From: an uncultured Thermoplasmatales archaeon
GTDB taxonomy: Archaea; Thermoplasmatota; E2; DHVEG-1
Length of the DNA: 64,000 nt
NCBI GenBank assembly: GCA_964467345.1
Contig: CAYXPY010000004.1
Span: 17,358-81,357, forward strand
Reading direction: 5' to 3'
The first letter of the stretch is position 1. Each line of letters opens with the position of its first letter. This document shows, in pieces, positions 32,326 through 64,000 of the stretch. The position numbers were made by a program, and so were the translations under genes. The notes under the pieces are model-generated. The model did not search any database. It had not been told where the DNA came from and saw only the letters and a list, made by a program, of their open reading frames with translations.

Positions 32326-32337
32326 GGGGTTAGAAAA

Positions 32338-46600: not shown

Positions 46601-47062
46601 AACCCAGAGGTATCCAGCAGGGGTCACACCACCGTCATCCGAAAAGATCCACATACCTGCTCGGAGAAACGTAATTGAGTTTCCTCCTGTGTTCAGAGTA
46701 TCAAAGATTTTACTCCCTGCAACACCTGCCTGTGTTGCTGCAACTCGAACCGGATATTCGTCAGTCCCGACTTTATATGGTCCGTCCCATGAAAAATTTG
46801 TTGCAACACCTGGAGACAAAGCCCAATAGTTCGGGTAGTATAGATAGTATGTCCCATTTGCAGCCCACTCCGAGGTATTGATCTTAATCTGACCACTAGT
46901 ATATGTCGTATCATAGACCAATTTTATTGTTGCATCTCCCCAGTCATCAGCACCAGGTTGCGCACTCGCTTCTTTTATAACATTTAATTGATTAAATACT
47001 ACCAGCGTTGATAGTAACATCGTTAGTACTACCAAGGTAGCAATTATTTTGTTTGCTTTCAT
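43685..47062 (-). CDS. giant secreted surface (S-layer-like) protein with a C-terminal PGF-CTERM archaeosortase sorting signal
   Basis: It starts at MKANKIIATLVVL (a signal peptide) with aggagg 6 nt upstream. The body is rich in T/G/V/D and Ig-like repeats. The C-terminus is 'GGIPGFELLTLIAAIGVAFLLLRRRRK'. Confidence 0.6.
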   Translation of the reverse strand: MKANKIIATLVVLTMLLSTLVVFNQLNVIKEASAQPGADDWGDATIKLVYDTTYTSGQIKINTSEWAANGTYYLYYPNYWALSPGVATNFSWDGPYKVGTDEYPVRVAATQAGVAGSKIFDTLNTGGNSITFLRAGMWIFSDDGGVTPAGYLWVNTSTVLSISSTSTFSYGSDAELEITVTEGGNNAACMIAVLDPDNNTVYHEYSQGTATLDQSYFDYAGKYTIRAYRDLDRYGVYYYYGDEDENAYDPLYGSDYSGMFPIGVGEGYDYSVVGPWDPPEKNATEKTFTVGTGKPNVVLTNTSIFWGFEARIDINVTNSTGAGLDFIPNPIMLKYGSKYVDFSAAITNEGDGNYSLKFARFDEGTEWADLVTALGDDNVNGTWRIVFGYDANADDTYEWNNTASFTIRSANPPVQLVIVNDGSGSATDKKVNVPEYISPNGQAETIDIVFDIFGRSITDEYRNAYYGDDSDEEDGVMDNLTIEGDILYPVTEADLVYSGSKGRWTATVTPTKPDGTITLTINWPGDENGTATQTIEIVNGTFVTSAVDSFTVGMDFNLTVTVTDMDGAPVKNAQVYLMWEDGAVEFNSTVGNNQPGRGFNGQYTFWIEPHKKDATTPDVAPQNITVAARWYEGFWGYTKVIMERNHNMIVTVTPTTAFAGDAVEYDIMVTLVGGGNPDTTGLSVALFNETGEYVTGVDEWYIDGVYDIQDELIPLSGGTYYIAAMNDTCDSRGNNATLVITSYVVTSSPSTLAWKIDEVNMTFQLTPAGNGTLTINNMTGAPEASIEGETTEIAIENGVGTLEEVEASTLGNVTFSYRPDGGEDRPADGLLRVTTATATPSPATIYNGEATLVTITITHPATGAPLEDVDVRLEAWNATLSDSILAKIPDNASTDAAGKVQFSITAQASGEVVIYIENESDPDNEFVIVATARKPMSIHLNPSVDEGKTFTVEAKSNGVLITDATVTFTFDGQTWPTNTGVATITAPTIATSMAYPITASAEGYVTATGAIITVLNIPKLIVAVAGEVKAGQTFTLTVADDTGSAVIGATVTFEGKTYTTGAGGSVTITAPSKAGSYPVTATFPGYDPVSGTVTIAEGGGIPGFELLTLIAAIGVAFLLLRRRRK

Positions 47063-47323
47063 TTTTTCATGTCCTCCTAAATTCATCTTGCATATTGCTT
47101 CATAATGGTCAGGTAAAACACGTTGGTTCACACCGTGAACCACCATATAAGTCCCTCTCTAGTGTAGATGTAGGTAACTTATATCTGTGTCCTCACCGGA
47201 CCTCAGGTGACGTAAATAACTACCTTGTTTATATACATTACGATTTTCCTTCCTTATCTTATAAACAACTATTGGTATAAAATTCAGATTAATCGTATAA
47301 ATTGTTTTCGTTTCATTTTGTTT

Positions 47324-47621: not shown

Positions 47622-47710
47622 CCCGCCTTAGCTCAGTCTGGCTGGAGCGGCCGGCTGTAGACTCTATGGCCGTTACCGGCAGGTCCCCGGTTCAAATCCG
47701 GGAGGCGGGA
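47622..47710 (+). tRNA. tRNA-Tyr (anticodon GTA) with a 14-nt intron after position 37
   Basis: Folded by hand. The acceptor pairs cccgcct/aggcggg, the D stem gctc/gagc, and the anticodon stem gccgg/ccggc. The loop is ctGTAg followed by the intron 'actctatggccgtt' and then a. The T arm is cccgg-ttcaaat-ccggg. Confidence 0.75.
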
Positions 47711-47776: not shown

Positions 47777-48820
47777 ATGACTCGAAAAAGAACTAAGGCA
47801 ATTCGTGTACCCCTCAGTCAAGCCGAACCGGTACGAAGACACCTACGGGAACGAAATCTACTCCGAGATGATGTCAAGATAGCAAAGGAAAAACCATATA
47901 TCTATTTTCCTATCAAAGATCCTATAGAGGACGTTCCACCTTATCAAATTACCACAAAATCATTTGAAATACGAATAAAGAGACCTCGGTCGTATAAGGA
48001 TCTTCTTCTGCTTCCAAAAAAACATCTGGAAAATCTTCCCACTTCGTACGATATTGTAGGAGGAATAGTCCTAATAAAACTACCAAAAACACTTCTCAAC
48101 TATCAAGATAAAATCGGAAAAGCCCTATTACAGGCACATACGAACATCCATACGGTCTGTGTCATCGATGCGGTAATTGGAGAGCTCCGCACACGCAATG
48201 TCTCCATTGTTGCTGGAAAAAAACAAACCCTGACCACGCATAAGGAATATGGGTTGACCTATGATGTGGACGTGGCAAAAGCATATTTTTCCCCGAGACT
48301 TGCATCAGAAAGAAAACGAATAGCTGGGCTTGTGCAGCCCGGTGAAATCATCGTAGATCTCTTCACCGGAGTAGCCCCGTTCGCTATCACGATAGCCCGG
48401 TATGCACAACCAAAGGTTGTCTATGCCATTGACAAAAACCCCGAGGCAATCCGTCTTGCAGAGAAGAATGTGAAACAGAACCATGTGCTGCAGACTGTTG
48501 AGATCATCCATGCCGATGCCACAGATGCTCCAAAACTTATCCCTGGAAAAGTAGACCGGATCATCATGAATCTACCTTTCTCCGCATTTGAGTTCTTTTC
48601 TGTTGCACTGTCCATCTCTGCGGAAACAAGCAAAATACATTATTACGACATCATCAGAGAAGAAAATATCGAAGCAAGGATCTCGGCATTGAAACAAATC
48701 GCTAAAGAACACGGTTATCGCATCATCGATGCATCAGTTCATAAAATCAAATCATACGCACCAAGAGAATTTTATATAGGAGTAGATATTACGGCTACGA
48801 AACACGCCGACGTAGCTTAG
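47777..48820 (+). CDS. trm5: Trm5/TYW2-family class-I tRNA methyltransferase (m1G37-type)
   Basis: 'VDLFTGVAPFAI' is a SAM-binding motif and 'DRIIMNLP' is the NLP catalytic motif. The product is 347 aa and its 3' end overlaps the tRNA-Thr 5' end by 15 nt. Confidence 0.7.
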   Translation: MTRKRTKAIRVPLSQAEPVRRHLRERNLLRDDVKIAKEKPYIYFPIKDPIEDVPPYQITTKSFEIRIKRPRSYKDLLLLPKKHLENLPTSYDIVGGIVLIKLPKTLLNYQDKIGKALLQAHTNIHTVCVIDAVIGELRTRNVSIVAGKKQTLTTHKEYGLTYDVDVAKAYFSPRLASERKRIAGLVQPGEIIVDLFTGVAPFAITIARYAQPKVVYAIDKNPEAIRLAEKNVKQNHVLQTVEIIHADATDAPKLIPGKVDRIIMNLPFSAFEFFSVALSISAETSKIHYYDIIREENIEARISALKQIAKEHGYRIIDASVHKIKSYAPREFYIGVDITATKHADVA

Positions 48821-48882
48821 CCCGGTTGAGCGGCTGACTTGTAATCAGCAGGTCGGGGGTCCAAATCCCTCCGTCGGCTCCA
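48806..48882 (+). tRNA. tRNA-Thr (anticodon TGT), CCA encoded
   Basis: The acceptor pairs gccgacg/cgtcggc. The D stem is gctt/gagc (with a GU pair). The anticodon stem gctga/tcagc closes loop cttgtaa. The T arm is ggggg-tccaaat-ccctc, the discriminator is t, and CCA follows. Confidence 0.85.
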
Positions 48883-49104
48883 TTTCCTATTTTTTCTCCT
48901 GTTGAACACGTTGAAAAACCCTATTTCAGAAATCGGCTTTTGACCCCTTAAACCCGTTTTAGCAGGATTATTCATCATTCGAATTAAACAACTATTAATC
49001 ATCTTTGGAAACCGTATCACTGCTTTCTCTTAATCCAAATTATAATGATATTCTTTTTATAGGAGAACATTGTTATAAAATGTTAATTAAGGGGCAGGAA
49101 ATAG

Positions 49105-49590
49105 ATGAAAAACACTCGTATACTACGAAAAGATCTGATTGTTGGTCTTCTTTGCCTTTTCATTTGTATGACTACTATTCCACTTATAATAGCACAATCA
49201 AATGATGATGTTACCATATGTATCACCGCTGGTTTTCTCTTTAATATGAATTATGATGAACCAAATAACAGAAGTATCGGAAGAGGAATAACCATATATG
49301 TTGTTAATAACTTAAGTGAACGAATCTGGATTTTCTATCAAGTTGATTACTCAACGCTGTCTGGTGAAACTCTTGAAACTTTAGGATTTGCTGGAGAATA
49401 TGGTTATGCACTACCACCAGACAATGATACTTTAATTGCTTTCTCAAATTTTGTTCAAATCCCCTGTCAGCTAACAGTATCGGTGCAAATCGGCTCTTAT
49501 AACACAGGTGCCATTAAGACAGTTTCAAGATCCGGGTATCAATTTCATCGATGGGTGTTTTTTCCAAAGGTGACGGAGCAGGTGAGATAA
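49105..49590 (+). CDS. hypothetical secreted protein (signal peptide), translationally coupled to the downstream beta-helix gene
   Basis: It is 161 aa with a hydrophobic N-terminus 'LIVGLLCLFICMTTIPLIIAQS'. Its stop lies 1 nt before the next ATG. Confidence 0.4.
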   Translation: MKNTRILRKDLIVGLLCLFICMTTIPLIIAQSNDDVTICITAGFLFNMNYDEPNNRSIGRGITIYVVNNLSERIWIFYQVDYSTLSGETLETLGFAGEYGYALPPDNDTLIAFSNFVQIPCQLTVSVQIGSYNTGAIKTVSRSGYQFHRWVFFPKVTEQVR

Positions 49591-49591
49591 A

Positions 49592-50971
49592 ATGAGATAT
49601 AACAGAGTAGAAAAAACATTGTTGATTGTATTGCTTCTTCTATTCAGTGGGGTTAGTGTGAGTCCTGCGCAGTCAACACAGATGAAAAACAGTGCACAAA
49701 ACCGGGAAGGTTTTCTGCTCTATGTTGGTGGTTCTGGCCCGGGTAATTATAGCAAGATTCAGGATGCGATTGATAATGCATCAGATGGTGACACCGTTTT
49801 TGTGTATGATGACTCATCACCCTATCATGAGAATATCGTAATTAGAAAATCAATTTACCTAATGGGGGAAGAAAGGCAAACAACAATAATTGATGGAAAA
49901 AAAAGTTGTAAGGTAATGACAGTGTTTGCTAACAATGTGACCATCACGGGATTTACGCTTCGTAATAGCGGAGTGTTGGTCATCGATTGTGCCATTGAAT
50001 GTCGTTCAAGTCATAACAAAATCTCAGGCAATATTATATCGAATAATTCCCAAGGTATCTGCTTCTACACCATCGGTTCATATGTTGCCAACAACAATAA
50101 CATCACTGGAAATATGATAACATCCAATAAGGGACCAGGCGTCTACCTATATCAATCTCAAAATAACATTATCTCTGGGAATACCTTTTCTTCGAATGAA
50201 GGTTTAATCCTTGATCAATCGTATGATAACACTATCTCAAATAATGAGTTTAGCAATGATGGCATCGTGTTAAACAGCTATCCGAACAATATTCTTCCAG
50301 ACAATTACGTCAACGGAAAACCCCTCATTTATATGGTGAGTGAATCAAATAAGATACTCGATACCGCAGGACAAATCATTCTCATTGATTGTTATAACAT
50401 TACCATTCGACAGCAAGACCTCTCAAACACCACCACGGGTCTGACTCTTCTTAGGACAAACAATTGTCATATCGAACGAAACAAGATGACGAATAACTGT
50501 AACTTTGGAATTAATCTTTTTGAATCAAATGAGAATAATATCTCATTGAATCGTATTGCAGATAATGATGCAGGGCTACAGGTTACCTCCTCAGAGAAAA
50601 ATACCATTATATGGAACATTATTCGTTTGAATCCATACTGGGGTATTGAACTTCGCGGGTCAAATAATAATGTCATCTCGACAAATATCATAGAAAAGAA
50701 CGGTGGGAGAAAGTTAGTAGAATATGGGTTGGGACTCTTCCTTGCGTCTTCATCGAATAACAGTATTATTCACAACAATTTCCTCAAAAATGCACGGGAT
50801 GCCTATTTCTATGAAGCATATTCAACTGAGTGGAATAGTAACTATTGGAGTAGACCAAGAATATTTCCAAAAATAATTCCTGGTGAAATAAAGGGAACTC
50901 TTTTTGATAGGCGCATTAACATCGATTGGCGTCCTTCTAAAACACCCTATGAGTTACCCGAGATGATTTGA
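49592..50971 (+). CDS. secreted right-handed parallel beta-helix (PbH1/NosD-like) repeat protein, paralog 1
   Basis: It has a signal peptide and the conserved 'LYVGGSGPGNYSKIQDAIDNASDGDTVFVYDDSSPYHENIVI' block. Many 'N-x-I-S-x-N' turns follow, and the C-terminus is 'NYWSRPRIFPK..DWRPSKTPYELP'. Confidence 0.65.
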   Translation: MRYNRVEKTLLIVLLLLFSGVSVSPAQSTQMKNSAQNREGFLLYVGGSGPGNYSKIQDAIDNASDGDTVFVYDDSSPYHENIVIRKSIYLMGEERQTTIIDGKKSCKVMTVFANNVTITGFTLRNSGVLVIDCAIECRSSHNKISGNIISNNSQGICFYTIGSYVANNNNITGNMITSNKGPGVYLYQSQNNIISGNTFSSNEGLILDQSYDNTISNNEFSNDGIVLNSYPNNILPDNYVNGKPLIYMVSESNKILDTAGQIILIDCYNITIRQQDLSNTTTGLTLLRTNNCHIERNKMTNNCNFGINLFESNENNISLNRIADNDAGLQVTSSEKNTIIWNIIRLNPYWGIELRGSNNNVISTNIIEKNGGRKLVEYGLGLFLASSSNNSIIHNNFLKNARDAYFYEAYSTEWNSNYWSRPRIFPKIIPGEIKGTLFDRRINIDWRPSKTPYELPEMI

Positions 50972-51213
50972 AACAAGAATAAAATCAGAACACACACGGA
51001 TTTTATTTATTACAATATTCCTAAATAATTTCAATATAAACTAATGTACTCAAAATAACTATTATCCCCAGAGATATATTTCGTTCCCCGACATATCAAA
51101 TAAAATACTATCTATATTCAAGGATTAACACAAAAGTTGAGGTAAATTTATCTATAAGAAAAATCATGTTATTTCGTAACAGGATTTTGGCGGTTTTTAC
51201 CTTTCTAAATACA

Positions 51214-51410
51214 ACCTTTCGTTGCAGTCCCTCCGTCGGCTCCATTTCCTATTTTTTCTCCTGTTAAACACCGTTAAAACCACGATATCAGAAATCGGCT
51301 TTTGACCCCTTTAATCATAAAATCGTGATTTACTATTTACACGAAAAATTTTGTTATAAATCGTGTTACAGCTTTCCTTCATGTGGAGGGGAACGAATTT
51401 GAACTCGTGT
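51214..51410 (+). repeat. att-like repeat copy A1 (hairpin 'aacctttcgtt' + tRNA-Thr 3'-end core 51229-51244 + ~165-nt conserved leader ending in T-arm-like motif at 51395)
   Basis: It aligns by eye to the copies at 48864, 52854, 54693, 55365 and 57416. The conserved block is 'tttcctattttttctcctgtt..cagaaatcggcttttgacccctttaatc..acgaaaaattttgtta'. Confidence 0.7.
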
Positions 51411-51477
51411 TTACCGGTTAAATTCTAAATAGGAGATAATAATTACTCATGTAAGAGCCTACAATTTCAGATGGTTT

Positions 51478-52629
51478 TCAGGTTATCCCTGGGAAGTCAT
51501 AGGGTTCTTGTGCAGGATGCCAATCAAATTGTATGAAGTCAGGAAAAACTTGATAAAAATTCTCTATTCCAAAGATTAGTTTCGGTAGAATCCGTGGTCT
51601 GCCCCAATAGTTCTGATCCCAAATGGTCTGTGAACTGTCTTCGTTGTTGAATCGTGCATGAACTTTATTGTTCATGAATGTATTCATAGAGATTTTTGAA
51701 AAATAGGAATCCTCAATGATGATGCCGCATCGATAATTGCTAATGATATTTTTTTCAATGCGAGTATCACGATTTCCGTCTGTGAGATGTATCCCTATCA
51801 CTTTCTGAATATTTTCAAAACTTGTCCCTGGAGGATTATCAATGACATTTGATATAATAGAATTATTTAATGTAAAACCTTCCATATAGATAGCCCTTGA
51901 ATTGTTAAAAAAATAATTATTCGATATGGTATTGTAACTTGATTGTATAATTCTCAATCCATCACGTTGAGAATTAATTGTATTGTTCGATATTCTGCTA
52001 TATGAAGCATGGTATAGAATAATACTTGAACCACTGCGTTCAACAGATTTTATTTGATTATCAGAAAAAGTACAATAGGACGTCCAATCCAGATTAATAT
52101 TCGAAGAATAATATGTATCAAAAGTATTTTGAGTAATGGTACAGAAATCACATTCATAAAATTCAATTAAAATGCTGATAGTTCCCTTGAATATATTATC
52201 AGAAACTGTCACATTTTGTATCGGTAGATAGTTGTTTGAGATAAGTGTACTGTAATTCCTTTCTGAAAATATTGTGAACCCTGAAATAGTTATATTATTG
52301 CTTTGGATGGAGATTTGGGTCTCATATTCTGAAGTCAAACCTTCTATAATCGTAGTGTTTTTTGATTCTCCAATGAGTCGGATGGCTGTTGGAATAACAA
52401 TTGCTTCAGTGTACAATCCGCTGTAGACAAATACAGTATCCTCATCATGAGAATCATTTATTGCATCCTGAATCCTTGTATAGTTACTTGGACCTGAACC
52501 ACCGACATAGAGCCAATTGCCTTTTGATGTTGGTAACGTTGGTTTTTCAATATCCTGTGCAATCACCGGAATGATACAGGTTGTAATGAAAAGAAGACTG
52601 ATTTCGACCGCCAAATATTTCCTTTTCAA
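51478..52629 (-). CDS. secreted parallel beta-helix repeat protein, paralog 2
   Basis: 'WLYVGGSGPSNYTRIQDAINDSHDEDTVFVYSGLY' is present, with a C-terminal 'NYWGRPRILPK..DWHPAQEPYDFP'. Confidence 0.65.
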   Translation of the reverse strand: MKRKYLAVEISLLFITTCIIPVIAQDIEKPTLPTSKGNWLYVGGSGPSNYTRIQDAINDSHDEDTVFVYSGLYTEAIVIPTAIRLIGESKNTTIIEGLTSEYETQISIQSNNITISGFTIFSERNYSTLISNNYLPIQNVTVSDNIFKGTISILIEFYECDFCTITQNTFDTYYSSNINLDWTSYCTFSDNQIKSVERSGSSIILYHASYSRISNNTINSQRDGLRIIQSSYNTISNNYFFNNSRAIYMEGFTLNNSIISNVIDNPPGTSFENIQKVIGIHLTDGNRDTRIEKNIISNYRCGIIIEDSYFSKISMNTFMNNKVHARFNNEDSSQTIWDQNYWGRPRILPKLIFGIENFYQVFPDFIQFDWHPAQEPYDFPGIT

Positions 52630-52699
52630 TTGATTCCTTCCTTATAGAATAACAATGAATCCCTCGTTATTTAAACCTTTGTGATAGGAAAAAAGGGCA

Positions 52700-53055
52700 G
52701 GGGAAAGGATCTGAACCCTTGGATTTCTTCGCATAAAAAACCATTATCCTAATATATTAAAACCGTATCAAAGTTTGATCGATAGAATATAAATATAACT
52801 TTTTCTGTATTTATAGCACGATTTTAGCTGGTTTTTTTACGGTAGTAAATATAACCTTTCGTTGCATTCCCTCCGTCGGCTCCTTTAATCATTTTTTCTC
52901 TTGTTAAACACAGTGAAAACGACGAAATCAGAAATCGGCTTTTGACCCTTTTAATCATAAAATCAATATCGATTATCTACACAAAAAATTTTGTTAGAAA
53001 CCGTATCACTGCATTCTTTCATGAACAGGGAAGGGATTTGAACCCTTGGGCACCT
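52700..53055 (+). repeat. complete composite element B2-A2-B3 (T-arm-like motif 52707-52718, ~160-nt conserved arm, core 52869-52883, ~165-nt leader, T-arm-like motif 53032-53044)
   Basis: Its left arm is about 85% identical to 58890-59066 and similar to 54545-54707. Its right arm is similar to the leaders after the other cores. Confidence 0.7.
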
Positions 53056-53338
53056 TAAGCAAGGATGTCATCGATTCGAACAAAAACTCAGGTTCTACAA
53101 CAAAGACGATAAATCATTCATTACCACTGAATCTTCGGATAATCTTCCTTGATATTTTTAGCAATCAAATCAAGATACACAACAGTAGTTGCTAAATCAT
53201 CGTGCCAGAGAATCATCTGTTGATTCCTGATTTTCAAAAGGCGGTAAAATCCTTATGATATATTTGTTTGGTCGAGAAACGAGGATACAATAGATGCCGT
53301 CCCAAACTTTAGTGTGGATGTGTATTTGGAGAGTGACA

Positions 53339-53977
53339 TTACTGATAAATGTGAGGACCACATGAAAAGCACGTGGTTATAGCTTCTGTTGTTGGGAAAA
53401 TAATAATATATATAATTTTGAGGATAGCGATTAAAATGTGAGCAAGGATGCAACCTGGAGACCATAGATTAATAGTTGACGTACATACATCGATTACTGA
53501 AGGTGGGCAAGATCTTGTTACATGGGTATTATCCTGTGTCTTACTATATTGTAGTGTTTTATAACAGTCGGGATTATTTTTTATTAGGGTTAATCCTTGT
53601 TTTATCTGCGATATTGTTTGTTTATTCGCTCCTTGTTGAGAAAATTTATTGAAAATCAGGTTAGCAAATGTCATTAGCTCATTATCTTGTAGTTGAACAA
53701 TATAGTCAACCATTAATTTACCTTGGTAAGTATCTGTTGAATATCGAGGAATTTGTAGAGATGTTATCCCCTGCCCTAGATAATTAACCGTTATGATACG
53801 TTCATTCTCTGGATTGATTTCCTTCTGTGTTCTGATATCAAACAATGGAGAGGGATTAATAGAACTGATTTTTTTTGATTGTACACTAATTACATTTATA
53901 AACGAGGTAAAAATCAGAATTGCAACAACTCCAATACTAACTACGATAATTCTCTTTTTTTTATTCATATATTCCAT
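53339..53977 (-). CDS. small secreted Cys-rich protein with hydrophobic C-terminal segment (family A)
   Basis: It is 212 aa with a signal peptide. 'SPLFDIRTQ' and 'WSPGCILAHILIAIL' match the paralog at 55643..56158. Confidence 0.35.
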   Translation of the reverse strand: MEYMNKKKRIIVVSIGVVAILIFTSFINVISVQSKKISSINPSPLFDIRTQKEINPENERIITVNYLGQGITSLQIPRYSTDTYQGKLMVDYIVQLQDNELMTFANLIFNKFSQQGANKQTISQIKQGLTLIKNNPDCYKTLQYSKTQDNTHVTRSCPPSVIDVCTSTINLWSPGCILAHILIAILKIIYIIIFPTTEAITTCFSCGPHIYQ

Positions 53978-54062
53978 TCCTCCATTCTAACAAAGAACCT
54001 CCACCAACTTATTTTCATGTTCTATTTTAAGGTCAGATAGTATTGTAGATAAATCAACATGT

Positions 54063-54482
54063 TTACCGATGAAGACGATCACGAGCTATCCGTGTGATAC
54101 TCATCGACTCCACAAAACCAGACTGTAACAAGGATTGTTTAATCTCATTCGCTGAACATGGACTTTTCGATAGATCAGCGATGATATTCCACCGGGCAGT
54201 CTTCCCACGTTGAGAACTTTTTGACTCGGTCATCACTAAATCGATTTTCATATCAGCTATTTTTTGTGCAATCTGAGCAAGACAACCCAGGGTATCACCG
54301 AATTCGATTTCCATTTTAACAATATCCTGTGGTTTACCGTAAATCGGGCTAATCGTTATGGTGTCTGTCTTCTGATCTAAACTCAGTAAGACCTCATCTC
54401 CTTCTTTCAGGTTGAGAGGTTCTCGGAATTCATTGGGGATTACTAATCGTCCCCGTGTGTCCAGTCGTACAATTGAGTTCAT
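54063..54482 (-). CDS. AbrB/MazE(SpoVT)-type DNA-binding domain fused to an ACT-like domain (putative regulator)
   Basis: 'MNSIVRLDTRGRLVIPNEFREPLNLKEGDEV' is a swapped-hairpin AbrB motif. The C-terminal ~70 aa are ACT-like ('IEFGDTLGCLAQIAQKIADMKIDL'). Confidence 0.5.
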   Translation of the reverse strand: MNSIVRLDTRGRLVIPNEFREPLNLKEGDEVLLSLDQKTDTITISPIYGKPQDIVKMEIEFGDTLGCLAQIAQKIADMKIDLVMTESKSSQRGKTARWNIIADLSKSPCSANEIKQSLLQSGFVESMSITRIARDRLHR

Positions 54483-54544
54483 TATTCACCTATGTGGGAA
54501 TATTGTGGGACGTAATTGGAGAGGCGGTATATAATTTTTGCTTT

Positions 54545-54880
54545 GAAGGGGAAGGGATTTGAAACCTTGGATTTCTTCGCTTAAAAAAAATCCTTCCACG
54601 ATATCAACGCTTGGCCGCTACGCTTATATAAAAATTATTATTTATAGTTTTTAAACACGATTTTAATTGGTTTTTTTACGTGAGTAAATGCAACCTTTCG
54701 TTGCAATCCCTCCGTCGGCTCCATTTACTATTTTTTCTCCTGTAAAAACATCATTTTTTATGAAAAATAGCAGAGGGCTTTTAACCCCTTTAATTCAACA
54801 ATCAAGATTGATTATCTATACAATAATTATTATTAGAAATCGTGTCACTGCTCCTCCACCCAATCCCTGTTTATTGAGGT
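54545..54880 (+). repeat. composite element B4-A3 (T-arm-like motif 54554-54565, core 54708-54723, leader)
   Basis: 'tttttacgtgagtaaatgcaacctttcgttgcaatccctccgtcggctcca' is identical to the copy at 59030-59077 up to the core. Confidence 0.7.
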
Positions 54881-55018
54881 TATTGTTTATAGAGGAGGAC
54901 AATATTAAAAAGCACTATAACGGGGGAAAGAAAATGAAAAGGAAATGGAATATGATAGTTTATGAATGTTTATCGATTGCAGGTTTCTTTCTTCTCATGC
55001 TTTTCTTGTGGTAGAACT

Positions 55019-55216
55019 TTACTTAGAGCGCCGAGCGAGCCATAAACCCAATATTATAAAAATAATGCCAAGACCACAGAGTAGAAGTGCAATTGGTAAC
55101 CCTCCACCGATAAGATAGCTATAAGGAGCATAATTATTATAGGGGGTCATAGCGATGATACCAAGCACAAGTCCTACCAATCCTATTATTATTGATAAAA
55201 TTGCGCCCTTTTTCAT
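55019..55216 (-). CDS. small membrane protein (two predicted TM helices)
   Basis: It is 65 aa with G/L/I-rich helices. This is a weak call. Confidence 0.3.
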   Translation of the reverse strand: MKKGAILSIIIGLVGLVLGIIAMTPYNNYAPYSYLIGGGLPIALLLCGLGIIFIILGLWLARRSK

Positions 55217-55364
55217 AATAGTAATAGTACCAAGTTTTAACTATTTAATCTATTCGATTTGATAAACTATTTCTGTGTCACTGCTTGTCCTCTCATAGTA
55301 TATAAAACTATCATTTTCTACGTTTTATGCATATTTTTAGCTGATTTTTACGTTAGCAAATGCA

Positions 55365-55560
55365 ACCTTTCGTTGAAATCCCTCCGTCGGCTCCATTTCC
55401 TATTTTTTCTCCTGTTAAACACACTGAAAACCACGATAACAGAAATCGGCTTTTGACCCCTTTAATCCAAAAATCAGGTTTACTATTTAAACGAAAAATT
55501 TTGTTAGAAACAGTATCAATGCTTCCCCCCCCCAACCCAGTTTATTAAGGATATTCTTTT
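55365..55560 (+). repeat. att-like repeat copy A4 (core 55380-55395 + leader; contains a C9 homopolymer at ~55526)
   Basis: The leader is nearly identical to the leader of copy A1 over about 120 nt. Confidence 0.7.
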
Positions 55561-55642
55561 ATAGAGGAACAATGATGTAAAATATGGATAAGGGGGAAAG
55601 TGTACGTATAAGAAACCTCCGATTGGAGTAAGTATCTGTACT

Positions 55643-56158
55643 GTGATTCTTCTTGTTATGGCTTCATTGAGTAATGTAGTTGGGTATCAATCGGTGAAAT
55701 CAACAGTCAATGATTCACCGTTATTTAAAACAAGGACGCAGAGAGCAACCAATCAACAACAGAGCAGTATAACTTCTCAGTATCTTGGAATGGGAAACAG
55801 AGTGGTTTTCAACTTCCCAATCCAAGGGAATAGGAATGAAATGGTCAATACGTTACTTGAGATAATTCATAGATTGGATAAGAAAACCTTGGAACGATTG
55901 ACTGAACTGTGTGTCCAGAAAATGACGAAGGACGGATTGTTTCATCAGATCATTTTTGTCTCAGGAAATACTTCGCAAACCGAGTCTCAGATTTTACCAA
56001 CCTGTTCACCTGTCACAGTCTGTGGTAACTGGGCTCCAGGATGTATTTTAAAGGCTATTCTAACTAGAATCGTTTATTTTCTTATAGAGATTTTTCAAAG
56101 ACCAACAGTGGCATGGCTTTGTTGGCATAGTGGTCAAGTTCCTTGTAACATACTCTAA
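55643..56158 (+). pseudogene. N-terminally truncated paralog of the small secreted Cys-rich protein (family A)
   Basis: It shares 'SPLFKTRTQ' and 'WAPGCILKAILTRI' with 53339..53977. It lacks an ATG and a signal peptide, and the frame opens right after a stop at 55607. Confidence 0.3.
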
Positions 56159-56186
56159 AATTGTGATGTAATAAAAGGAAGGAAAA

Positions 56187-57287
56187 ATGAACACAAACCT
56201 ATTGAAGAAATGGTTGACAATTGGAATCATTCTCTTGGTGGTTGGGACGACTGTCATTCCATCTATCGCACAGGATACAGAGAAACTATCTCAATCAATA
56301 TCAAGAGGTAACTGGCTCTATGTCGGTGGGAGTGGACCAGGGAACTACAGTAAAATTCAGGGTGCGATTGATAATGCGAGTGAGGGAGATACCATATTTG
56401 TTTATGATGATTTATCACCGTATTATGAGAATCTTTTGATAGAAAAATCCATAAAATTACAAGGAGAGAACAGAACAACAACAGTTCTAGTTGGCAGTGC
56501 AATTACAGAAAAAATTATCGTAAACATTTCTGCAGATAATGTCAGTTTTCGTAACTTTACCATTCAACCAATTTTAGGAAATCCTACGGGTATTACTGTC
56601 TATAAAAATTATACAAACCCTGATTGTTGGAAAACGGAAATTATTCAGAATGTATCTATTTCTGATACTATTATTAGAAACACCTCAATGGGAATCTTAG
56701 CTATTCGACTAAACAAAGGGATGATTAATGGGAATATTGTTGAAAATTGTAGTGGTGATGCTGGGATGTTATTCCTTGTTTCATCAGATAATATCATTAC
56801 AAATAATTTTGTTGCTCATTGTTCAGGTATTGGGATTTTAATTGATGGTTTATGGAGCATCTTTAATATCAATAATTATCGTCAACCTTGCCCAAAAAAT
56901 AATTTTCTTTCTCGGAATACGGTCATATCGAATCGATGGGGAATTGAAGTGAATAGCGGCCCGTTTCACACCATAATAAGTGAAAATAACATTTCGCATA
57001 ACCATGAATTAGGTATACAGATTGTCCATGCTTATAAGACTGAAATCACACGAAATAATTTTATGAACAATACTGAAAACGCTTATTTCTATAACATTCG
57101 GTTTCCTCAATTTGTGATATTGAAAAATTCATGGGAGAACAACTATTGGGATGAACCAAAGAAACTTCCTGTAACAATCCATGGGGTATATTATTCCCTT
57201 TTATCATTATTTATTTCATTACCTTCTATAGCATTTGATTGGCACCCTGCACAAGAACCCTATGACATTCTAAGAATAGCAAACTAA
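56187..57287 (+). CDS. secreted parallel beta-helix repeat protein, paralog 3
   Basis: 'NWLYVGGSGPGNYSKIQGAIDNASEGDTIFVYDDLSPYYENLLI' is present, with a C-terminal 'NYWDEPKKLP..FDWHPAQEPYDIL'. Confidence 0.65.
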   Translation: MNTNLLKKWLTIGIILLVVGTTVIPSIAQDTEKLSQSISRGNWLYVGGSGPGNYSKIQGAIDNASEGDTIFVYDDLSPYYENLLIEKSIKLQGENRTTTVLVGSAITEKIIVNISADNVSFRNFTIQPILGNPTGITVYKNYTNPDCWKTEIIQNVSISDTIIRNTSMGILAIRLNKGMINGNIVENCSGDAGMLFLVSSDNIITNNFVAHCSGIGILIDGLWSIFNINNYRQPCPKNNFLSRNTVISNRWGIEVNSGPFHTIISENNISHNHELGIQIVHAYKTEITRNNFMNNTENAYFYNIRFPQFVILKNSWENNYWDEPKKLPVTIHGVYYSLLSLFISLPSIAFDWHPAQEPYDILRIAN

Positions 57288-57415
57288 TCTTCCATATCCT
57301 CTTTTTCATTATTTGTATAAAAACCGAGTCAATGCTTTTTAGTCACACTTATATATAGATTTAAATTTTTGTATTTTAATTACGATTATACTTGTTTTTT
57401 ATGTTCCTAAATATA

Positions 57416-57600
57416 ACCTTTCGTTGTGTGCCCTCCGTCGGCTCCTTTAATCATTTTTTCTCCTGTTGAACTGCCTAAAAATCAGAAAATCATAAGAGGG
57501 CTTTTGACCCCTTTGACCGTAAAATCAAAATCGATCATCTACACAAAAAATTCTGTTAAAAATCGTGTCATTGCTTTCTTTCATATGCAGGAGAAGAGAT
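57416..57600 (+). repeat. att-like repeat copy A5 (core 57431-57445 + leader)
   Basis: Past the core the sequence reads 'ggctcctttaatcattttttctcctgtt...gggcttttgacccctttgacc', the same variant as copy A2. Confidence 0.65.
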
Positions 57601-57726
57601 GTGATTCTATAATTACCAGTTAAAATCTGAGTAAAGATTAATAATTACTCCTGTTAAACCCTTCTTTTTTCATTGATTTTTTTAGATATCATTTGGTAAT
57701 TTTAGACGTTCTTTTTCTTAACTCTT

Positions 57727-58806
57727 TCAGGGTATGTCATAGGGTTCTTGTGCTGGAAACCAATCAAATTGATACCATGGAATAGATCCTTGAAAAAGCG
57801 GAAATGGCCATAAATCTCTCCATTCTATTACTCCAGGGATTTTCCTTGGTGAAATCGATTGGTGGTCATCCCAGTAATTCCTATTCCAATTGTTTCGATA
57901 AATAATTCGGGGGAAATTACAATGAAAATAAGCACTTTTATTATTGTTTATGAAATTGTTAAAATGGATTTCATTTTTTCTACCTTCATAATTCGAAATG
58001 CCGCAGTAGCGACATCCATTAAATTCATTCCATTGGATCACATGTTTGTGTCCTGCGAGGCTGATGGCTGTTGAGCAGTTGAGGAAGGTATTGTAATCTA
58101 TCGTGTTTTCGTTGGTCGTTGAAAAAAGATGAATTCCCGTGCCCCCGTTCTGTATCGTATTATTAGTGATCGTATTGTAAGAGTTGAAGGTTTCAATTCC
58201 GATGATTGTATGGTCTATGATATTGTCTTTTATATGGCTATAACAATCACTTACCCATATCGCTCTCAGTACATCGCTAATCCTATTCTCTTTGATTGTG
58301 ATCCCTGTGTTGATTGGAGAGACTCCGGTTTGAACGACGCAAATTCCGTCTGCTATTATTTCTTCTGCAGTGAGAATATTTCTCTGAATCGTGACGTTAT
58401 TACAGTTGATTATTCTGATTAGGTAACTGATTTCCCCGCAATTTCGAATCGTAAAATTTGAGATGGTTACAGTGTCATGGAGTATTCGGATGGTATCACC
58501 GGTATTGCTTGCATCTATGATTGTATTTTGCGAGTTGTTACCTGCGAGGTGTATTGATGTGTTGATGATAAGATTTTCATAGTATGGTAAACTTTGGTCG
58601 TAGACAAAGATCGTATCACCGTTGCTCGCGTTATCGATCGCATCCTGAATGGTTGAATAGTTATTTGGTCCGCTTCCCCCAACATATAACCATTTATCTT
58701 TTAATAAAGGGTAGAATGTTTTCTCTGTATCTTCTGCAGTAGATGGAATGATGCTAATCCCAACAATCATGAAAACAATTCCAAATGCTAAACTTTTCTT
58801 TTTCAT
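57727..58806 (-). CDS. secreted parallel beta-helix repeat protein, paralog 4
   Basis: It starts at MKKKSLAFGIVF and contains 'KWLYVGGSGPNNYSTIQDAIDNASNGDTIFVYDQSLPYYENLII', with a C-terminal 'QFDWFPAQEPYDIP'. Confidence 0.65.
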   Translation of the reverse strand: MKKKSLAFGIVFMIVGISIIPSTAEDTEKTFYPLLKDKWLYVGGSGPNNYSTIQDAIDNASNGDTIFVYDQSLPYYENLIINTSIHLAGNNSQNTIIDASNTGDTIRILHDTVTISNFTIRNCGEISYLIRIINCNNVTIQRNILTAEEIIADGICVVQTGVSPINTGITIKENRISDVLRAIWVSDCYSHIKDNIIDHTIIGIETFNSYNTITNNTIQNGGTGIHLFSTTNENTIDYNTFLNCSTAISLAGHKHVIQWNEFNGCRYCGISNYEGRKNEIHFNNFINNNKSAYFHCNFPRIIYRNNWNRNYWDDHQSISPRKIPGVIEWRDLWPFPLFQGSIPWYQFDWFPAQEPYDIP

Positions 58807-58889
58807 CGATTTACCTCTTTGTGCTATGCTAATACATAGCACATAATACATATATAATATTTAAATCTTTTTCAAAATAAAAAGTATGC

Positions 58890-59077
58890 AGGTGAATGGA
58901 TTTGAGTTCTTGGATTTCGTCACATAAAAAAACCATTATCATAGTATGTTAAAACCGTGTCAAAGATTGACCGATACTATTATATAAAAAAATAACTTTT
59001 CCTGTATTTATAGCACGATTTTAGCTGGTTTTTTTTACGTGAGTAAATGCAACCTTTCGTTGCAATCCCTCCGTCGG
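58890..59077 (+). repeat. terminal element B5-A6 (T-arm-like motif 58898-58909, conserved arm, degenerate core 59067-59077)
   Basis: The core reads 'ccctccgtcgg' and then diverges ('tttccaacg'). This is the last copy before the PKD/PGF-CTERM gene. Confidence 0.6.
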
Positions 59078-59270
59078 TTTCCAACGTATTTCCCTAATTT
59101 AAGTTACCATAAAACCATGGATGGTTCATTTTAATCGAGTAGAGCCATTTCACAAAAAATCATTACGATTTCCATCAGTGGCGTTTTACAAAGAAGGATA
59201 ATTTTTGGATATGTTTTTAAAGAAAGAGCTCATACGATACATAACTTGAAATGAGCAGGAGTGGAGATAA

Positions 59271-60251
59271 ATGAGGAGAGTAAAAAAACTAATAGTATTG
59301 TATTTGTTAGTAATTATAAGCATTCTTCAAATAACATATTTTGTTGGAGCCACAACCACCGTTGTATTTCATCCTATCGATGATACGATGATAAAGAATG
59401 AATCCCCCTTTACGCCCTATGGAAACTTGTGGAATATCGCAGTGAGGAACGTCTATGGAGAAAGTAACAAAAATTTTTATGAAATTGATACATTGATAAA
59501 TTTTGATATATCCTCCATACCCTCAACAGCTACCGTATTATCAGCGTCTCTTAATTTATATTATTCTAATTGGTCTGGGTCAAATCCTGCGGGAAGGAAC
59601 CTTACGATCTATCTCATAACAAGTAGCTGGAGTGAACAATATGTGTATTGGAACACTCAACCATCGTATGCAACAACCCCTTCAAGCAGTTCTTTTGTGC
59701 CACAGTCAAAAGAACAATGGATGAGCTGGGATGTCACCGATGATGTCCAATACCTTGTCAAGGAGCGAGCCTACTACGGATGGAAAATTGCTGATGAAAC
59801 CAACTGGGAAAAGCCAAATGTTCCTCTGACGAATTTCTGGGCGAAAGAATATGGCAATTATATCCCTTATCTAGAAGTTGTATACACCTTTTCAGAAGTA
59901 ACTACAGGACCTGTTGCTGGATTTTCCCTCTCACCGCTCAACCCAACAACAAAGGATTCGATACAGTTCACCGACACCTCATATGACCCGGAGGAGACGA
60001 TCACCGAATGGTTCTGGATTTTTGGTGACGGCAACAGTGCGGCAACAAAAAACCCTACCCATACCTACACAACAAGCGGACAATATACAGTTACTCTTCA
60101 AGTCACTGATTCCAAAGGTTTAACAGATTCATTAACGACAGTTTTGGTGATAGCAGAAGCAAAATCCACACCAGGCTTTGAATTTCTCATCATCGCCTGT
60201 GCGATTACCGTTCTATTACTTATTAAACATCAAGGGAAAAAACATAACTAA
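59271..60251 (+). CDS. secreted protein with PKD domain and PGF-CTERM sorting signal
   Basis: It has a signal peptide, the PKD block 'FTDTSYDPEETITEWFWIFGDGNSAATKNPTHTYTTSGQYTVTLQVTDSKG' and the C-terminus 'TPGFEFLIIACAITVLLLIKHQGKKHN'. Confidence 0.6.
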   Translation: MRRVKKLIVLYLLVIISILQITYFVGATTTVVFHPIDDTMIKNESPFTPYGNLWNIAVRNVYGESNKNFYEIDTLINFDISSIPSTATVLSASLNLYYSNWSGSNPAGRNLTIYLITSSWSEQYVYWNTQPSYATTPSSSSFVPQSKEQWMSWDVTDDVQYLVKERAYYGWKIADETNWEKPNVPLTNFWAKEYGNYIPYLEVVYTFSEVTTGPVAGFSLSPLNPTTKDSIQFTDTSYDPEETITEWFWIFGDGNSAATKNPTHTYTTSGQYTVTLQVTDSKGLTDSLTTVLVIAEAKSTPGFEFLIIACAITVLLLIKHQGKKHN

Positions 60252-63982: not shown

Positions 63983-64000
63983 AATGTTCAATCCCCTTAA

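Follow-up and report, generated by a model that had tools for sequence, protein, structure and literature searches.

In the 64,000-nt stretch of DNA analysed here (the window), a tRNA-Thr(UGU) gene with Trm5, DUF5817 and housekeeping genes in its flanks ends in a 16-nt sequence (48866-48881) that is also the core common to a series of repeats downstream. Six further occurrences of the tRNA-Thr 3′ end extend to 59077: the exact 3′ 16-mer TCCCTCCGTCGGCTCC was found again at 51228, 52868, 54707 and 55379, the copy at 57431 has its first base altered, and of the copy at 59066 just TCCCTCCGTCGG (59066-59077) is left. Similarity to the tRNA locus begins at the core and extends more than 140 nt past the tRNA, and at the far junction homology stops at GGCT, with the terminal core of the window lacking the CT of this GGCT. 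The array between these limits (Table 1) has a GC content of 35.0%, compared with 46.2% upstream and 43.3% downstream, and its cassettes measure 0.67-2.4 kb, the maximum in one relative being 7.8 kb. At the left junction, the arm fused to the tRNA supplies the CCA, an oligo-T run and a distal arm motif (49009-49025), and relatives with an empty site have an unrelated trailer in this position. The right junction contains an arm motif at 58952-58968 and the truncated core, and the trailer that follows it is orthologous to those of the relatives L029 and L024. As in tRNA-targeting elements, the tRNA-Thr gene is restored by the insertion, and the tRNA fragment that was displaced recurs at the distal end.

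Table 1 Features of the tRNA-Thr locus and of the inserted array (window coordinates)
Feature	Position	Strand	Remarks
tRNA-Thr(UGU) gene, attachment target	48806..48882	+	ARAGORN; Rfam tRNA 64.1 bits
Entire inserted array, six cassettes, 10.2 kb	48883..59077	.	Absent in L024; single 3.5-kb element in L029, same flanking genes
Left junction (attL side), downstream (P′) arm fused directly to tRNA	48883..49025	+	Aligns with P′ arms of all internal copies
Cassette 1 cargo	49105..50971	+	161-aa protein and 459-aa NosD/beta-helix protein
Module, cassettes 1/2	51148..51374	+	Divergent P arm, hairpin, core 51228-51243, P′ arm, arm motif 51358-51374
B motif, degenerate, right end of module 1	51388..51410	+	Reverse complement of tRNA-like T-arm and acceptor 3′ end
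Cassette 2 cargo	51478..52629	-	383-aa NosD/beta-helix protein
B motif GGGGAAAGGATCTGAACCCTTGG, left of studied module	52700..52722	+	2 mismatches to consensus, 0 expected
P arm, module under study	52757..52838	+	Arm motif 52760-52776; AT-rich TATA-like boxes 52787-52799, 52810-52817
Core-proximal block, almost invariant between genomes	52839..52867	+	Alignment of 21 copies; pair counts
Core TCCCTCCGTCGGCTCC, inferred crossover region	52868..52883	+	Homology to tRNA starts here
P′ arm, module under study	52884..53014	+	T-run 52892-52897, conserved block ATCAGAAATCGGCTTTTGACCC, distal arm motif 52998-53014
B motif AGGGAAGGGATTTGAACCCTTGG, right of studied module	53027..53049	+	1 mismatch
Cassette 3 cargo	53339..54482	-	212-aa protein and 139-aa AbrB/MazE-type protein
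Module, cassettes 3/4	54548..54853	+	B motif 54548-54570, P arm, core 54707-54722, P′ arm, arm motif 54837-54853
Cassette 4 cargo	55019..55216	-	Sole ORF, 65 aa, in 672-bp cassette
Module, cassettes 4/5	55275..55524	+	Core 55379-55394; without B motifs
Cassette 5 cargo	55643..57287	+	171-aa protein and 366-aa NosD/beta-helix protein
Module, cassettes 5/6	57321..57607	+	Arm motifs 57321, 57560; core 57431-57445; degenerate B ~57585-57607
Cassette 6 cargo	57727..58851	-	374-aa NosD/beta-helix protein
Right junction (attR)	58891..59077	+	B motif 58891-58913, P arm, hairpin, truncated core, then native trailer
Native tRNA trailer (B′) and native CBM96-PKD gene (59271-60251)	59078..60251	+	Directly after tRNA-Thr in L024

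NosD/beta-helix paralogues are present in four of the six window cassettes, and the cargo proteins are 27-44% identical among themselves and to the cargo of the loci fetched from other genomes. A recent transfer of cassettes was rejected, since the closest homologue database-wide of the cargo protein at 57727-58851 is merely 57% identical. Another homologue of this protein, 48% identical, sits in a low-GC element that bears an integrase and a resolvase and has no modules. The promoter-like motif GGATATGTTTTTAWAG is common to the cargo on the plus strand and to the native neighbours.

Structure of the junction modules

The internal modules are non-coding, 250-350 nt long, and consist of an upstream (P) arm, a 6-bp hairpin, the core, a T-run and a downstream (P′) arm. 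All the elements that an earlier note had listed for the module at 52700-53055 were found in their places. Its P arm contains the TATA-like box TTTATAGC at 52810-52817, a T7 run (52832-52838) and, at ~52817, the arm motif in inverted form (CACGATTT), the core-proximal block is made up of ACGGTAGTAAAT and the hairpin TATAAC-CTTTC-GTTGCA (52850-52866), and the core matches tRNA-Thr positions ~59-74 plus CC. Some details required adjustment. The tRNA-Thr mimic had been given as 19 nt long, which holds for the copies at 54705 and 55377, where 19-20 nt match, whereas the studied copy is exact over 16 nt; the TATA-like box, which had been placed about 30 nt upstream, lies ~26 nt before the start of the conserved block and ~55 nt before the core. 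The parts of the proposed B-A-B unit are likewise present, but the unit is better read as an A-type junction, that is, arms plus tRNA-Thr core, between two B-bracketed cargo segments. A split integrase or other coding sequence across the module was rejected, as there is no conserved ORF or start codon: the single possible start, the ATG in AAATGCAACC, is missing in three of the six window copies, some copies have an ORF of at least 50 aa across the P′ arm and others do not, and the copies differ by 1-nt indels. A riboswitch or other structured leader was rejected for the P′ arm, whose consensus fold reached −0.79 kcal/mol with no covarying pairs, and so was a known RNA family, as all Rfam matches were true tRNAs, whether gathering thresholds or E ≤10 were applied.

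The arm motif AAAYYGTRTCAMNGYTT had 10 matches against 1.04 expected, all of them on the plus strand and within the array. As an 8-nt motif, AAAWYGTG, it occurs at about −112, −52 (inverted) and +129 relative to the core, with 5-8-fold enrichment in the array and fixed positions in both arms, while its distance to the cargo promoter is not constant. This spacing resembles that of arm-type binding sites, and we infer a role for the arm motifs in recombination; the strong conservation of the arms could alternatively be regulatory.

The B consensus gave three matches at ≤3 mismatches, compared with 0.00 expected. The motif at 52700-52722 lies, on the minus strand, immediately 5′ of the promoter of the gene at 51478-52629, and with that at 53027-53049 the next cargo segment on the minus strand begins; B motifs are always found just 5′ of a cargo promoter and usually 3′ of the cargo too. 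The copy near 57585 is badly degenerate. The description of the B motif as the reverse complement of a tRNA 3′ end stands as far as a tRNA-like T-arm and acceptor are concerned, although the source differs from tRNA-Thr: the second-tRNA 3′ end implied by these motifs reads ...AAGGGTTCAAATCCCTTCCCCTGCA, and no cognate tRNA was present in any fetched locus. The B motifs are degenerate 3′ ends of a second tRNA-like sequence that bracket the cargo, and they look like the att scars of a further cassette system nested within the array. One simple att system does not account for the two orientations of the cargo or for the interleaving of the B motifs.

Empty and occupied sites in related genomes

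The tRNA-Thr gene is 100% identical in relatives with occupied and with empty sites. Unoccupied attB sites were found in two relatives, L024 and L025, in which the native downstream gene adjoins the tRNA. In L024, whose Trm5 is 78% identical, the tRNA ends in GGCT followed by TGTAATCC, and the orthologue of the window gene at 59271-60251 comes directly afterwards; in L025, the GGCT is followed by TCTTTAATAAAAAAACTATGGTGAGCAC, and this same trailer comes after the terminal P arm and core in L004 and L011. With the same flank, occupancy ranges from no cassettes in L024 through one 3.5-kb element in L029 and L030 to six cassettes in the window. In L029, the closest relative, the insert lies between tRNA-core-P′ and P-core-trailer junctions and its genes are all metabolic (amine oxidase, flavodoxin and radical-SAM genes, as in L030), a cargo unrelated to that of the window. 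The sister lineage contains no cassettes in L025, one plus a Kdp operon in L026, two in L011, three plus one more in L010 and at least four in L012, and one gene is the first after the tRNA in L012 and the last in the array in L010. L003 and L010, which represent the same species in two samples, are collinear. Several genomes reproduce both junctions, with tRNA, core and P′ arm at the left end and P arm, core and native trailer at the right. The empty sites, together with the junctions shared by relatives, show that 48883-59077 is a 10.2-kb low-GC insertion of six cassettes.

The possibility that the repeats are recombination sites, raised in the earlier note, is well supported by the empty attB, the junction types, the boundaries and the fixed position of the arm motif. 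The boundaries of the copies coincide with those of the cassettes in every genome examined, a search of other genomes recovered the arm/core junction pattern in 12 independent contigs from other samples, which together with the B- and arm-motif counts excludes a chance origin of the repeats, and in a multiple alignment of the copies, the core and the hairpin block were invariant in 19-21 of them. Modules are 72-89% identical in nucleotide sequence between genomes, while flanking orthologues are 64-72% identical in amino acid sequence. The nearest relative of a module usually comes from another genome, and gene conversion is not evident, since module similarity within a genome is not above that between genomes.

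No Phage_integrase, resolvase or transposase domain was detected in the cassette proteins of the window or in its Pfam-scanned ORFs, a set from which the longest were left out (11658-16175, 18446-21499, 28960-35004, 43685-47146 and 60392-63991); from their position, their size and the domains of neighbours or orthologues, these five appear to encode redox-complex, RNA polymerase and surface proteins. There was no recombinase among the Pfam families precomputed for called genes of L024-L027, L029-L030, L032 and L033, the ORFs of L002-L012 were checked for recombinases by eye only, and no integrase remnants were found in the 20-odd to ~25 cassettes from at least eight genomes. In a more distant relative, L028, an N-terminal fragment of a ~400-aa tyrosine integrase lies 48 nt after the tRNA-Thr, showing that tRNA-Thr is an integrase target in this group. 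This fragment was assigned to a family by exhaustive search and, as the query of a word-indexed search, matched itself alone. No autonomous element with the same att site was found in a viral contig collection (four scans) or in the fetched loci. Among the viral contigs, the junction pattern gave nothing relevant, a 17-mer of the tRNA core matched only bacterial or phage tRNA-Thr genes and chance sequences, the P′ block gave chance-level matches without extended similarity, and the hairpin block gave one chance match; genomes and metagenomes were scanned with the junction pattern only. None of 12 contigs had the overlapping ends of a circular cassette, and neither an excised or empty variant inside one population nor a near-identical cassette at two places was found. 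Given these results and the collinearity of L003 and L010, any mobility of the cassettes at present is putative.

Origin of the array and comparison with known systems

The stretch at 52700-53055 is probably an attP-like junction between two adjacent cassettes of a tRNA-Thr(UGU) array built by site-specific recombination. In the mechanism that we propose, a circular cassette would carry one ~250-nt site, consisting of P arm, hairpin block, core and P′ arm, along with promoter-bearing cargo in either orientation and no recombinase gene, and its core of 13-16 nt would be identical to tRNA-Thr positions ~59-73. The cassette would be inserted when the core of this circle recombined with that of the tRNA or of any junction already in place, after which the P′ arm would restore the tRNA 3′ end with an encoded CCA and an oligo-T terminator and the P arm would move to the far side. 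Repeated insertion would then generate the order tRNA-core-P′, any number of P-core-P′ units, and P-core-native trailer. The recombinase responsible for strand exchange would act in trans, its gene lying at another place in the genome or on a helper element; it would most likely be a tyrosine integrase and would bind the core region and AAAWYGTG at its three positions (~−112, −52 inverted, +129), with cleavage predicted within CCCTCCGTCGGCT. Because the attB, attL, attR and attP-like sequences all come from natural genomes, this system is directly testable, and the conserved arm motif provides a handle for tracing the recombinase.

A further-reaching possibility, which we put forward tentatively and regard as rather doubtful, is that the locus is a functioning integron-like gene-capture platform, unrelated to integrons, that combines nested exchange of cargo at B motifs with diversification of surface proteins and capture of operons such as Kdp. 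Here a chromosomal or helper recombinase would use the ~250-nt attP and its arm-type sites to add, remove and reorder mini-cassettes with promoters of their own at the 3′ end of tRNA-Thr. At its boldest, this scenario would have the promoter-hairpin-core-T-run segment also yield a short RNA that mimics the tRNA-Thr 3′ end and makes recombination or expression depend on the state of the tRNA. Mobile cassettes, if that is what these are, would represent archaeal gene capture without an integrase in the mobile unit, distinct from integrons. Their mobility would explain the varied secreted beta-helix and PKD surface proteins of this uncultured, widespread sediment and wetland lineage, as well as the uptake of operons such as Kdp at one chromosomal hotspot.

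The modules might instead be fossil scars, left by integrase-bearing proviruses or plasmids that entered the tRNA-Thr gene repeatedly and then decayed to att ends and a gene or two with no present function. Islands at tRNA genes commonly end up as tandem accretions that contain partial tRNAs and degraded elements (bioRxiv 10.1101/2020.12.28.424599), and the visibly degenerate B motifs, the integrase fragment beside tRNA-Thr in L028 and the fact that mobility was never directly observed are all consistent with this explanation. Scars, however, should diverge faster than genes, whereas the modules have remained more similar than either the flanking proteins or the cargo (72-89% compared with 64-72% and 27-44%), and the invariant core and hairpin block, the lack of any integrase remnant in the ~25 cassettes and the retention of both whole arms even in 672-bp cassettes, such as the fourth in the window, likewise make this origin unlikely.

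The earlier note had also suggested an independently transcribed small RNA, which could exist alone or within the module, and this we judge to be quite improbable. Such a gene would start at the A of ACGGTAG (52839) and stop at the oligo-T at 52892-52897, and its product of ~55-60 nt would combine a hairpin with the tRNA-Thr 3′ end in single-stranded form and could be a decoy or a regulator. It gained no positive support, nor was it refuted: the TATA-like box, at a promoter-like distance from the start of the invariant block, and the T-run that had suggested it are present. The box TTTATAGC is centred ~26 nt before the invariant block in the commonest arm type, but L005, L007, L008 and L012_7960, which have another P-arm type, keep the block without a TATA at that distance; almost every internal copy has a T-run after its core, but this is already accounted for as the terminator given to the tRNA. 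The hairpin is conserved and most of its variants are G·U-compatible on the plus strand only (14 cells compared with 2), yet no measure of pairing or covariation was above the shuffle controls, of which 201 of 500 had as high a percentage of paired cells and 271 of 500 as high a covariation score, with one compensatory cell in the alignment. A two-helix fold (ACG..AG / hairpin / CU.CGU) was possible in 92.6% of cells, against at most 48% in slid controls, but was no better than shuffles (227/500 and 310/500), and the consensus fold energy was merely −3.7 kcal/mol. Three of the six putative RNAs folded with z-scores of −2.4 to −2.8, and the other three with z-scores of −0.02 to −0.8. A small RNA also leaves the empty-site and junction data unexplained. 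Finally, the genes of the paralogous family of secreted beta-helix proteins might share a regulatory intergenic unit (terminator, insulator, upstream activating sites and promoter) that multiplied through tandem duplication and in which selection or gene conversion maintained the similarity, the tRNA-like core being incidental. This would fit the four cassettes with NosD/beta-helix paralogues, the T-runs and AT-rich boxes within modules, the promoter-like motif GGATATGTTTTTAWAG and an arm motif that could be a transcription-factor site, but is very improbable given that it does not explain the exact start within the tRNA, the exact end at GGCT or the clean empty sites, that the cargo of relatives (Kdp operon, amine oxidase, flavodoxin, radical SAM) is unrelated to that of the window, that modules within a genome are no more alike than between genomes, and that the arm motif is at no constant distance from cargo promoters.

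An array built by site-specific recombination at tRNA-Thr has counterparts among tRNA-targeting elements and islands (Islander, PMC4383910), including the tandem accretion of Prochlorococcus tycheposons (bioRxiv 10.1101/2020.12.28.424599). As in these, the array enters the 3′ part of a tRNA gene that is regenerated, with a tRNA fragment at the far end, newer insertions displace older ones outward, and a hypervariable island beside the tRNA is matched by empty sites in relatives. Such islands encode a tyrosine integrase or still show remnants of it, in contrast to the ~25 cassettes here, which have none; the units here are also far smaller (0.7-3.5 kb), the non-coding arms are their best-conserved part, and the host is an archaeon (Thermoplasmatota). 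The CIMEs, cis-mobilizable elements of Streptococcus and other bacteria (defined in PMC6323972), similarly have intact attL and attR sites and no genes for integration or transfer, accrete in tandem at one site and, as the cassettes would, need a recombinase from another element. CIMEs, however, are regarded as decayed ICEs or IMEs and are mobilised in cis by a cognate ICE, whereas no cognate autonomous element was found here in the viral contigs or the fetched loci, the arrays of up to six units are archaeal, and conjugation is not implied. An element of the SSV type ('suicidal' archaeal integrase), in which the att core lies inside the integrase ORF and integration leaves int(N) and int(C) (PMC7253208), was rejected, as no conserved ORF spans the module and no integrase domain was found.

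The putative sites resemble the lambda-type attP in being ~250 bp long, in sharing a short core with the target, and in having a second motif in both arms, direct and inverted, at ~−112, −52 and +129. To our knowledge, no arm-binding integrase has been characterised in the Thermoplasmatota. With integrons, including archaeal integrons and CALINs (PMC9668308), the array shares small cassettes bounded by a conserved recombination site, variable and fast-evolving cargo and a recombinase outside the cassettes, and as with the many integron arrays that lack an adjacent integrase, none was found in the scanned ORFs of the window. The site itself is different, as it consists of ~250 nt of arms plus a tRNA-derived core without the 57-141-nt imperfect palindrome (R″-L″...L′-R′) of attC; an identification as attC was rejected since the sole conserved pairing is the 6-bp hairpin with its 5-nt loop, and the whole module, folded as single-stranded DNA, had a z-score of −2.0 without a long hairpin. 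An integron platform was rejected as well, with no intI or attI and no Phage_integrase domain in the window ORFs scanned: the platform here is a tRNA gene rather than an attI beside intI, and the cassettes have their own promoters and occur in both orientations. As far as we found, no integron-like arrangement of integrase-less cassettes at tRNA-Thr has been described before for archaea, and arrays of this kind would be missed both by island finders that need an integrase gene and by integron finders that need attC.

Integration at the 3′ end of tRNA-Thr

The last 16 nt of the tRNA-Thr gene, TCCCTCCGTCGGCTCC, recur downstream as the core of a non-coding module, which spans 250–350 nt around each internal copy and consists of an upstream P arm, a near-invariant block ACGKTAGTAAAT with the hairpin TGCAAC-CTTTC-GTTGCA, the core, a T-run and a downstream P′ arm of ~140 nt. 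The same P′ arm directly follows the genuine tRNA-Thr, and the last copy comprises a P arm and core only. The order in the window, tRNA-core-P′, five P-core-P′ junctions and finally P-core and unrelated DNA, is that of tandem integration, with core-to-core segments of 2363, 1640, 1839, 672, 2051 and 1636 bp that each hold one or two small genes. Only the core and the 30 nt next to it are invariant across both P-arm families. An 8-nt arm motif, AAA[ATC][CT]GT[GA], occupies fixed spots relative to the core, at about −112 (direct), −52 (inverted) and +129 (direct), and is enriched in the array 8-fold in direct and 5-fold in inverted orientation. All elements listed in the earlier note were recovered in place. 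The arm motif occurs 10 times against 1.04 expected by chance and the B consensus, a further repeat, 3 times against 0.00. Lambda-type attP carries arm-type sites, which the arm motif, fixed in position in both module arms, resembles.

A search with the junction pattern AACCTTTCGTTGNNNNCCCTCCGTCGG matched one Thermoplasmatota MAG and 11 metagenome contigs, and no viral contigs. In three of these metagenome contigs (L010–L012), arrays of these modules come after an identical tRNA-Thr and lie between the genes that flank the array in the window, at a flank nucleotide identity of only ~75%. Further loci were chosen from contigs encoding orthologues of the upstream Trm5 gene. One of them (L024, Trm5 78% identical) has an empty site, ...CCGTCGGCT/TGTAATCC..., with the CBM96-PKD gene immediately downstream; in the window this gene lies after the last repeat, and the promoter region AATTTTTGGATATGTTTTTAAAGAAA is common to both. 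The locus L025 is likewise empty, ...GGCT/TCTTTAATAAAAAAACTATGGTGAGCAC..., and continues into a zinc-ribbon gene; its trailer also follows a terminal P arm and core in two other contigs (L004 and L011). In the closest relative (L029/L030, Trm5 86%), a single 3.5-kb insert lies between tRNA-Thr and the CBM96-PKD gene, bounded by tRNA-core-P′ on one side and P-core-trailer on the other, and its cargo is nothing like that of the window. In another relative (L026), one small cassette precedes a Kdp potassium-transport operon of 7.8 kb, which is complete and lies between two cores sharing ~50 nt; the hotspot thus also captures an adaptive operon of that size. Empty attB, attL, attR and internal attP-like junctions are thus all documented, which supports the earlier note's reading of the repeats as recombination sites.

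Alignment of the junctions put the homology breakpoints at TCCC on the left and GGCT on the right, which would place the crossover in tRNA positions ~59–73. No CCA is encoded at the empty sites, whereas occupied sites have GGCTCCA or GGCTCCT and then an oligo-T run, indicating that the incoming arm supplies the tRNA 3′ trailer and terminator.

Small-RNA reading, module conservation and B motifs

The module had also been read as an independently transcribed small RNA, a proposal that is unsupported, though the data neither require nor refute it. In the commonest arm type, a TATA-like box is centred ~26 nt ahead of the invariant block's first base; copies with other P-arm types have no TATA box so placed. 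A T-run comes after the core. Of the cells, 92.6% allow a two-helix fold versus at most 48% in slid controls, and most hairpin variants are G·U-compatible on the plus strand only, yet no measure of pairing or covariation rose above shuffle controls. The observed percentage of cells paired and the covariation score were reached by 201 and 271 of 500 shuffles for the hairpin, and by 227 and 310 of 500 for the two-helix fold. One cell was compensatory, the consensus fold reached only −3.7 kcal/mol, single-sequence z-scores ran from −0.02 to −2.8, the P′ arm had no conserved structure, and there was no Rfam match.

Between genomes, the non-coding modules are 72–89% identical at the nucleotide level and the flanking orthologues 64–72% at the amino acid level, whereas the cargo proteins of the fetched genomes share 27–44% of their residues, whether compared inside one genome or across genomes, and the best database-wide match of one cargo protein reaches 57%. 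The nearest relative of most module copies lies in another genome, and arm subtypes are common to several genomes, in mosaic combinations joined at the core. The tRNA-proximal P′ arm of the window differs in subtype from those of L010 and L011, and one gene is in the tRNA-proximal first position in L012 and last of the array in L010. Judged from these comparisons, conserved modules with variable cargo are the pattern expected if working recombination sites are joined to cargo that can be exchanged, and not the pattern expected of decaying scars or of a gene family duplicated recently.

Both parts of the composite B-A-B element described previously are present, but the unit is an A-type junction between two B-bracketed cargo segments. 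Read as its reverse complement, the B consensus GCAGGGGAAGGGATTTGAACCCTTGG gives a tRNA-like T-arm and acceptor 3′ end, CCAAGGGTTCAAATCCCTTCCCCTGC. This end is not that of tRNA-Thr and may resemble a class-II, Leu-type tRNA end. In cargo-gene orientation, B always lies just 5′ of a T-run and the cargo promoter; minus-strand cassettes have a second copy 3′ of the cargo, and in L012 one copy is inverted, on the 5′ side of a cargo encoded on the plus strand. B copies are far more degenerate than the A core, and we infer that they may be att scars from a nested second system of cassettes. No cognate tRNA was present in any fetched locus.

Cargo, recombinases and other features of the window

The cargo of the array comprises four NosD/right-handed beta-helix proteins, one AbrB/MazE-type protein and several proteins without a Pfam match. 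The array has a GC content of 35.0% versus 46.2% and 43.3% in the flanks (array genes 32–39% versus 43–46%). The long repeats I2, I3 and I5 (inverted) and D16 (direct) were rejected as regulatory elements, their source being a conserved C-terminal coding motif, ..FDWHPAQEPYDI.., common to the NosD/beta-helix cassette proteins on both strands and found also in L010 and L012 proteins; this motif may be a sorting or anchoring signal. A hydrophobic N-terminal segment that closes with ..SL(S/T)NV(V/I)GYQSV.. is common to small cargo proteins or N-terminal parts of cargo proteins; proteins with this segment have no Pfam match and are often encoded immediately 5′ of a beta-helix gene. The promoter-like motif GGATAT(G/T)TTTTTA(A/T)AG lies upstream of plus-strand cassette genes and of both native tRNA-adjoining genes (CBM96-PKD and zinc-ribbon protein), which points to shared regulation or to a strong promoter consensus specific to the lineage.

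Features of the window and of fetched contigs of relatives (L numbers); bare coordinates refer to the window
Feature	Location	Remarks
ORF, 1505 aa	11658-16175	in redox cluster
Redox gene cluster	1-23000	
Third tRNA gene	47622-47710	89 nt, room for intron; Rfam only, 51.7 bits
tRNA-Thr(UGU) gene	48806-48882	ARAGORN and Rfam
Array	48883-59077	six cassettes
Core copies	51228, 52868, 54707, 55379, 57431, 59066	first base differs at 57431; cut to 12 nt at 59066
Last module copy	59030-59077	
B pairs	51388/52700, 53027/54548, ~57585/58891	
B motifs, L029	3312, 5463, 6497	also divide cargo into two sub-units
Repeats I2, I3, I5, D16	50924-50973, 51476-51534, 57228-57278, 57734-57769	
SL(S/T)NV(V/I)GYQSV segment carriers	55643-56158, 53339-53977; L012 4348-4950; L010 2910-4694; L027 end	
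GGATAT(G/T)TTTTTA(A/T)AG	59205-59225, 49045-49060, 55545-55560; L004, L025, L026, L027	
CBM96-PKD gene	59271-60251	
L029/L030 insert	L029 3190-6662	amine-oxidase, flavodoxin, radical-SAM genes
Kdp operon	L026 11948-19749	KdpD, KdpB, KdpA/C, KdpF and Usp-DUF4118 sensor
97-aa ORF	L028 11147-11438	48 nt after tRNA-Thr

Recombinase domains were absent from every cargo protein of the array and from the remaining window ORFs scanned, all of them ordinary genes of the chromosome, and no integrase turned up in those ORFs, in the cassettes or in any viral contig bearing part of the module. The complete, more distant genome CP070798 (L028, Trm5 54% identical) has a slightly different tRNA-Thr 3′ end and no module. 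At this locus, which is interrupted by a masking N-run, the 97-aa ORF beside tRNA-Thr was identified by exhaustive search as the N-terminus of a ~400-aa tyrosine integrase family, with a C-terminal zinc ribbon in three of eight scanned members. tRNA-Thr is therefore an integrase target in the group; the finding shows such targeting only and does not link the integrase family to the modules. Many family members in the library searched are only 100–190 aa long and could be split or truncated integrases. Elsewhere, the C-terminal part of a putative IS110-type transposase, recognized by eye, lies directly after a module P′ arm at a contig end (oriented L009, 1268-1609, minus strand). A 48%-identical homologue of the cargo protein at 57727-58851 is found in a 34% GC stretch (L086 1260-9165, ERZ23498683) that adjoins a TGT gene, also holds a 462-aa tyrosine integrase and a serine resolvase, and contains no module or tRNA; it seems that other mobile elements also carry beta-helix surface proteins.

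Archaeal markers in the window include exosome, proteasome, GatE and Trm5 genes, a split RNA polymerase subunit and a candidate intron-holding tRNA, so the organism is an archaeon. This tRNA, missed by ARAGORN in bacterial mode, is probably tRNA-Tyr because its anticodon region reads ggctGTAgac. The large redox gene cluster encodes NiFe hydrogenase subunits and a maturation protease along with HdrB/CCG, HdrA-like, MvhD/FlpD, FrhB-like and polyferredoxin proteins; it is characteristic of energy metabolism in anaerobic Thermoplasmatota and has no relation to the array.

Comparison with known systems

We rate the array as tRNA-targeted, site-specific integration in Thermoplasmatota, in which the inserted units are mini-cassettes that bring their own promoters and a long conserved attP and encode no integrase. 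The literature searched, the coverage of which was incomplete, contained no account of such integrase-less arrays at a tRNA gene in archaea. Integrons, which include archaeal ones and integrase-less CALINs (PMC9668308), follow the same logic of small cassettes with a conserved site; attC structure and an intI/attI platform were tested for, and the array has neither. In bacteria, CIMEs keep attL and attR while integration genes are absent (PMC6323972), as is the case here. Site-specific insertion into a tRNA 3′ end with tandem accretion, as seen in the array, is classical for tRNA islands (Islander, PMC4383910; tycheposon islands).
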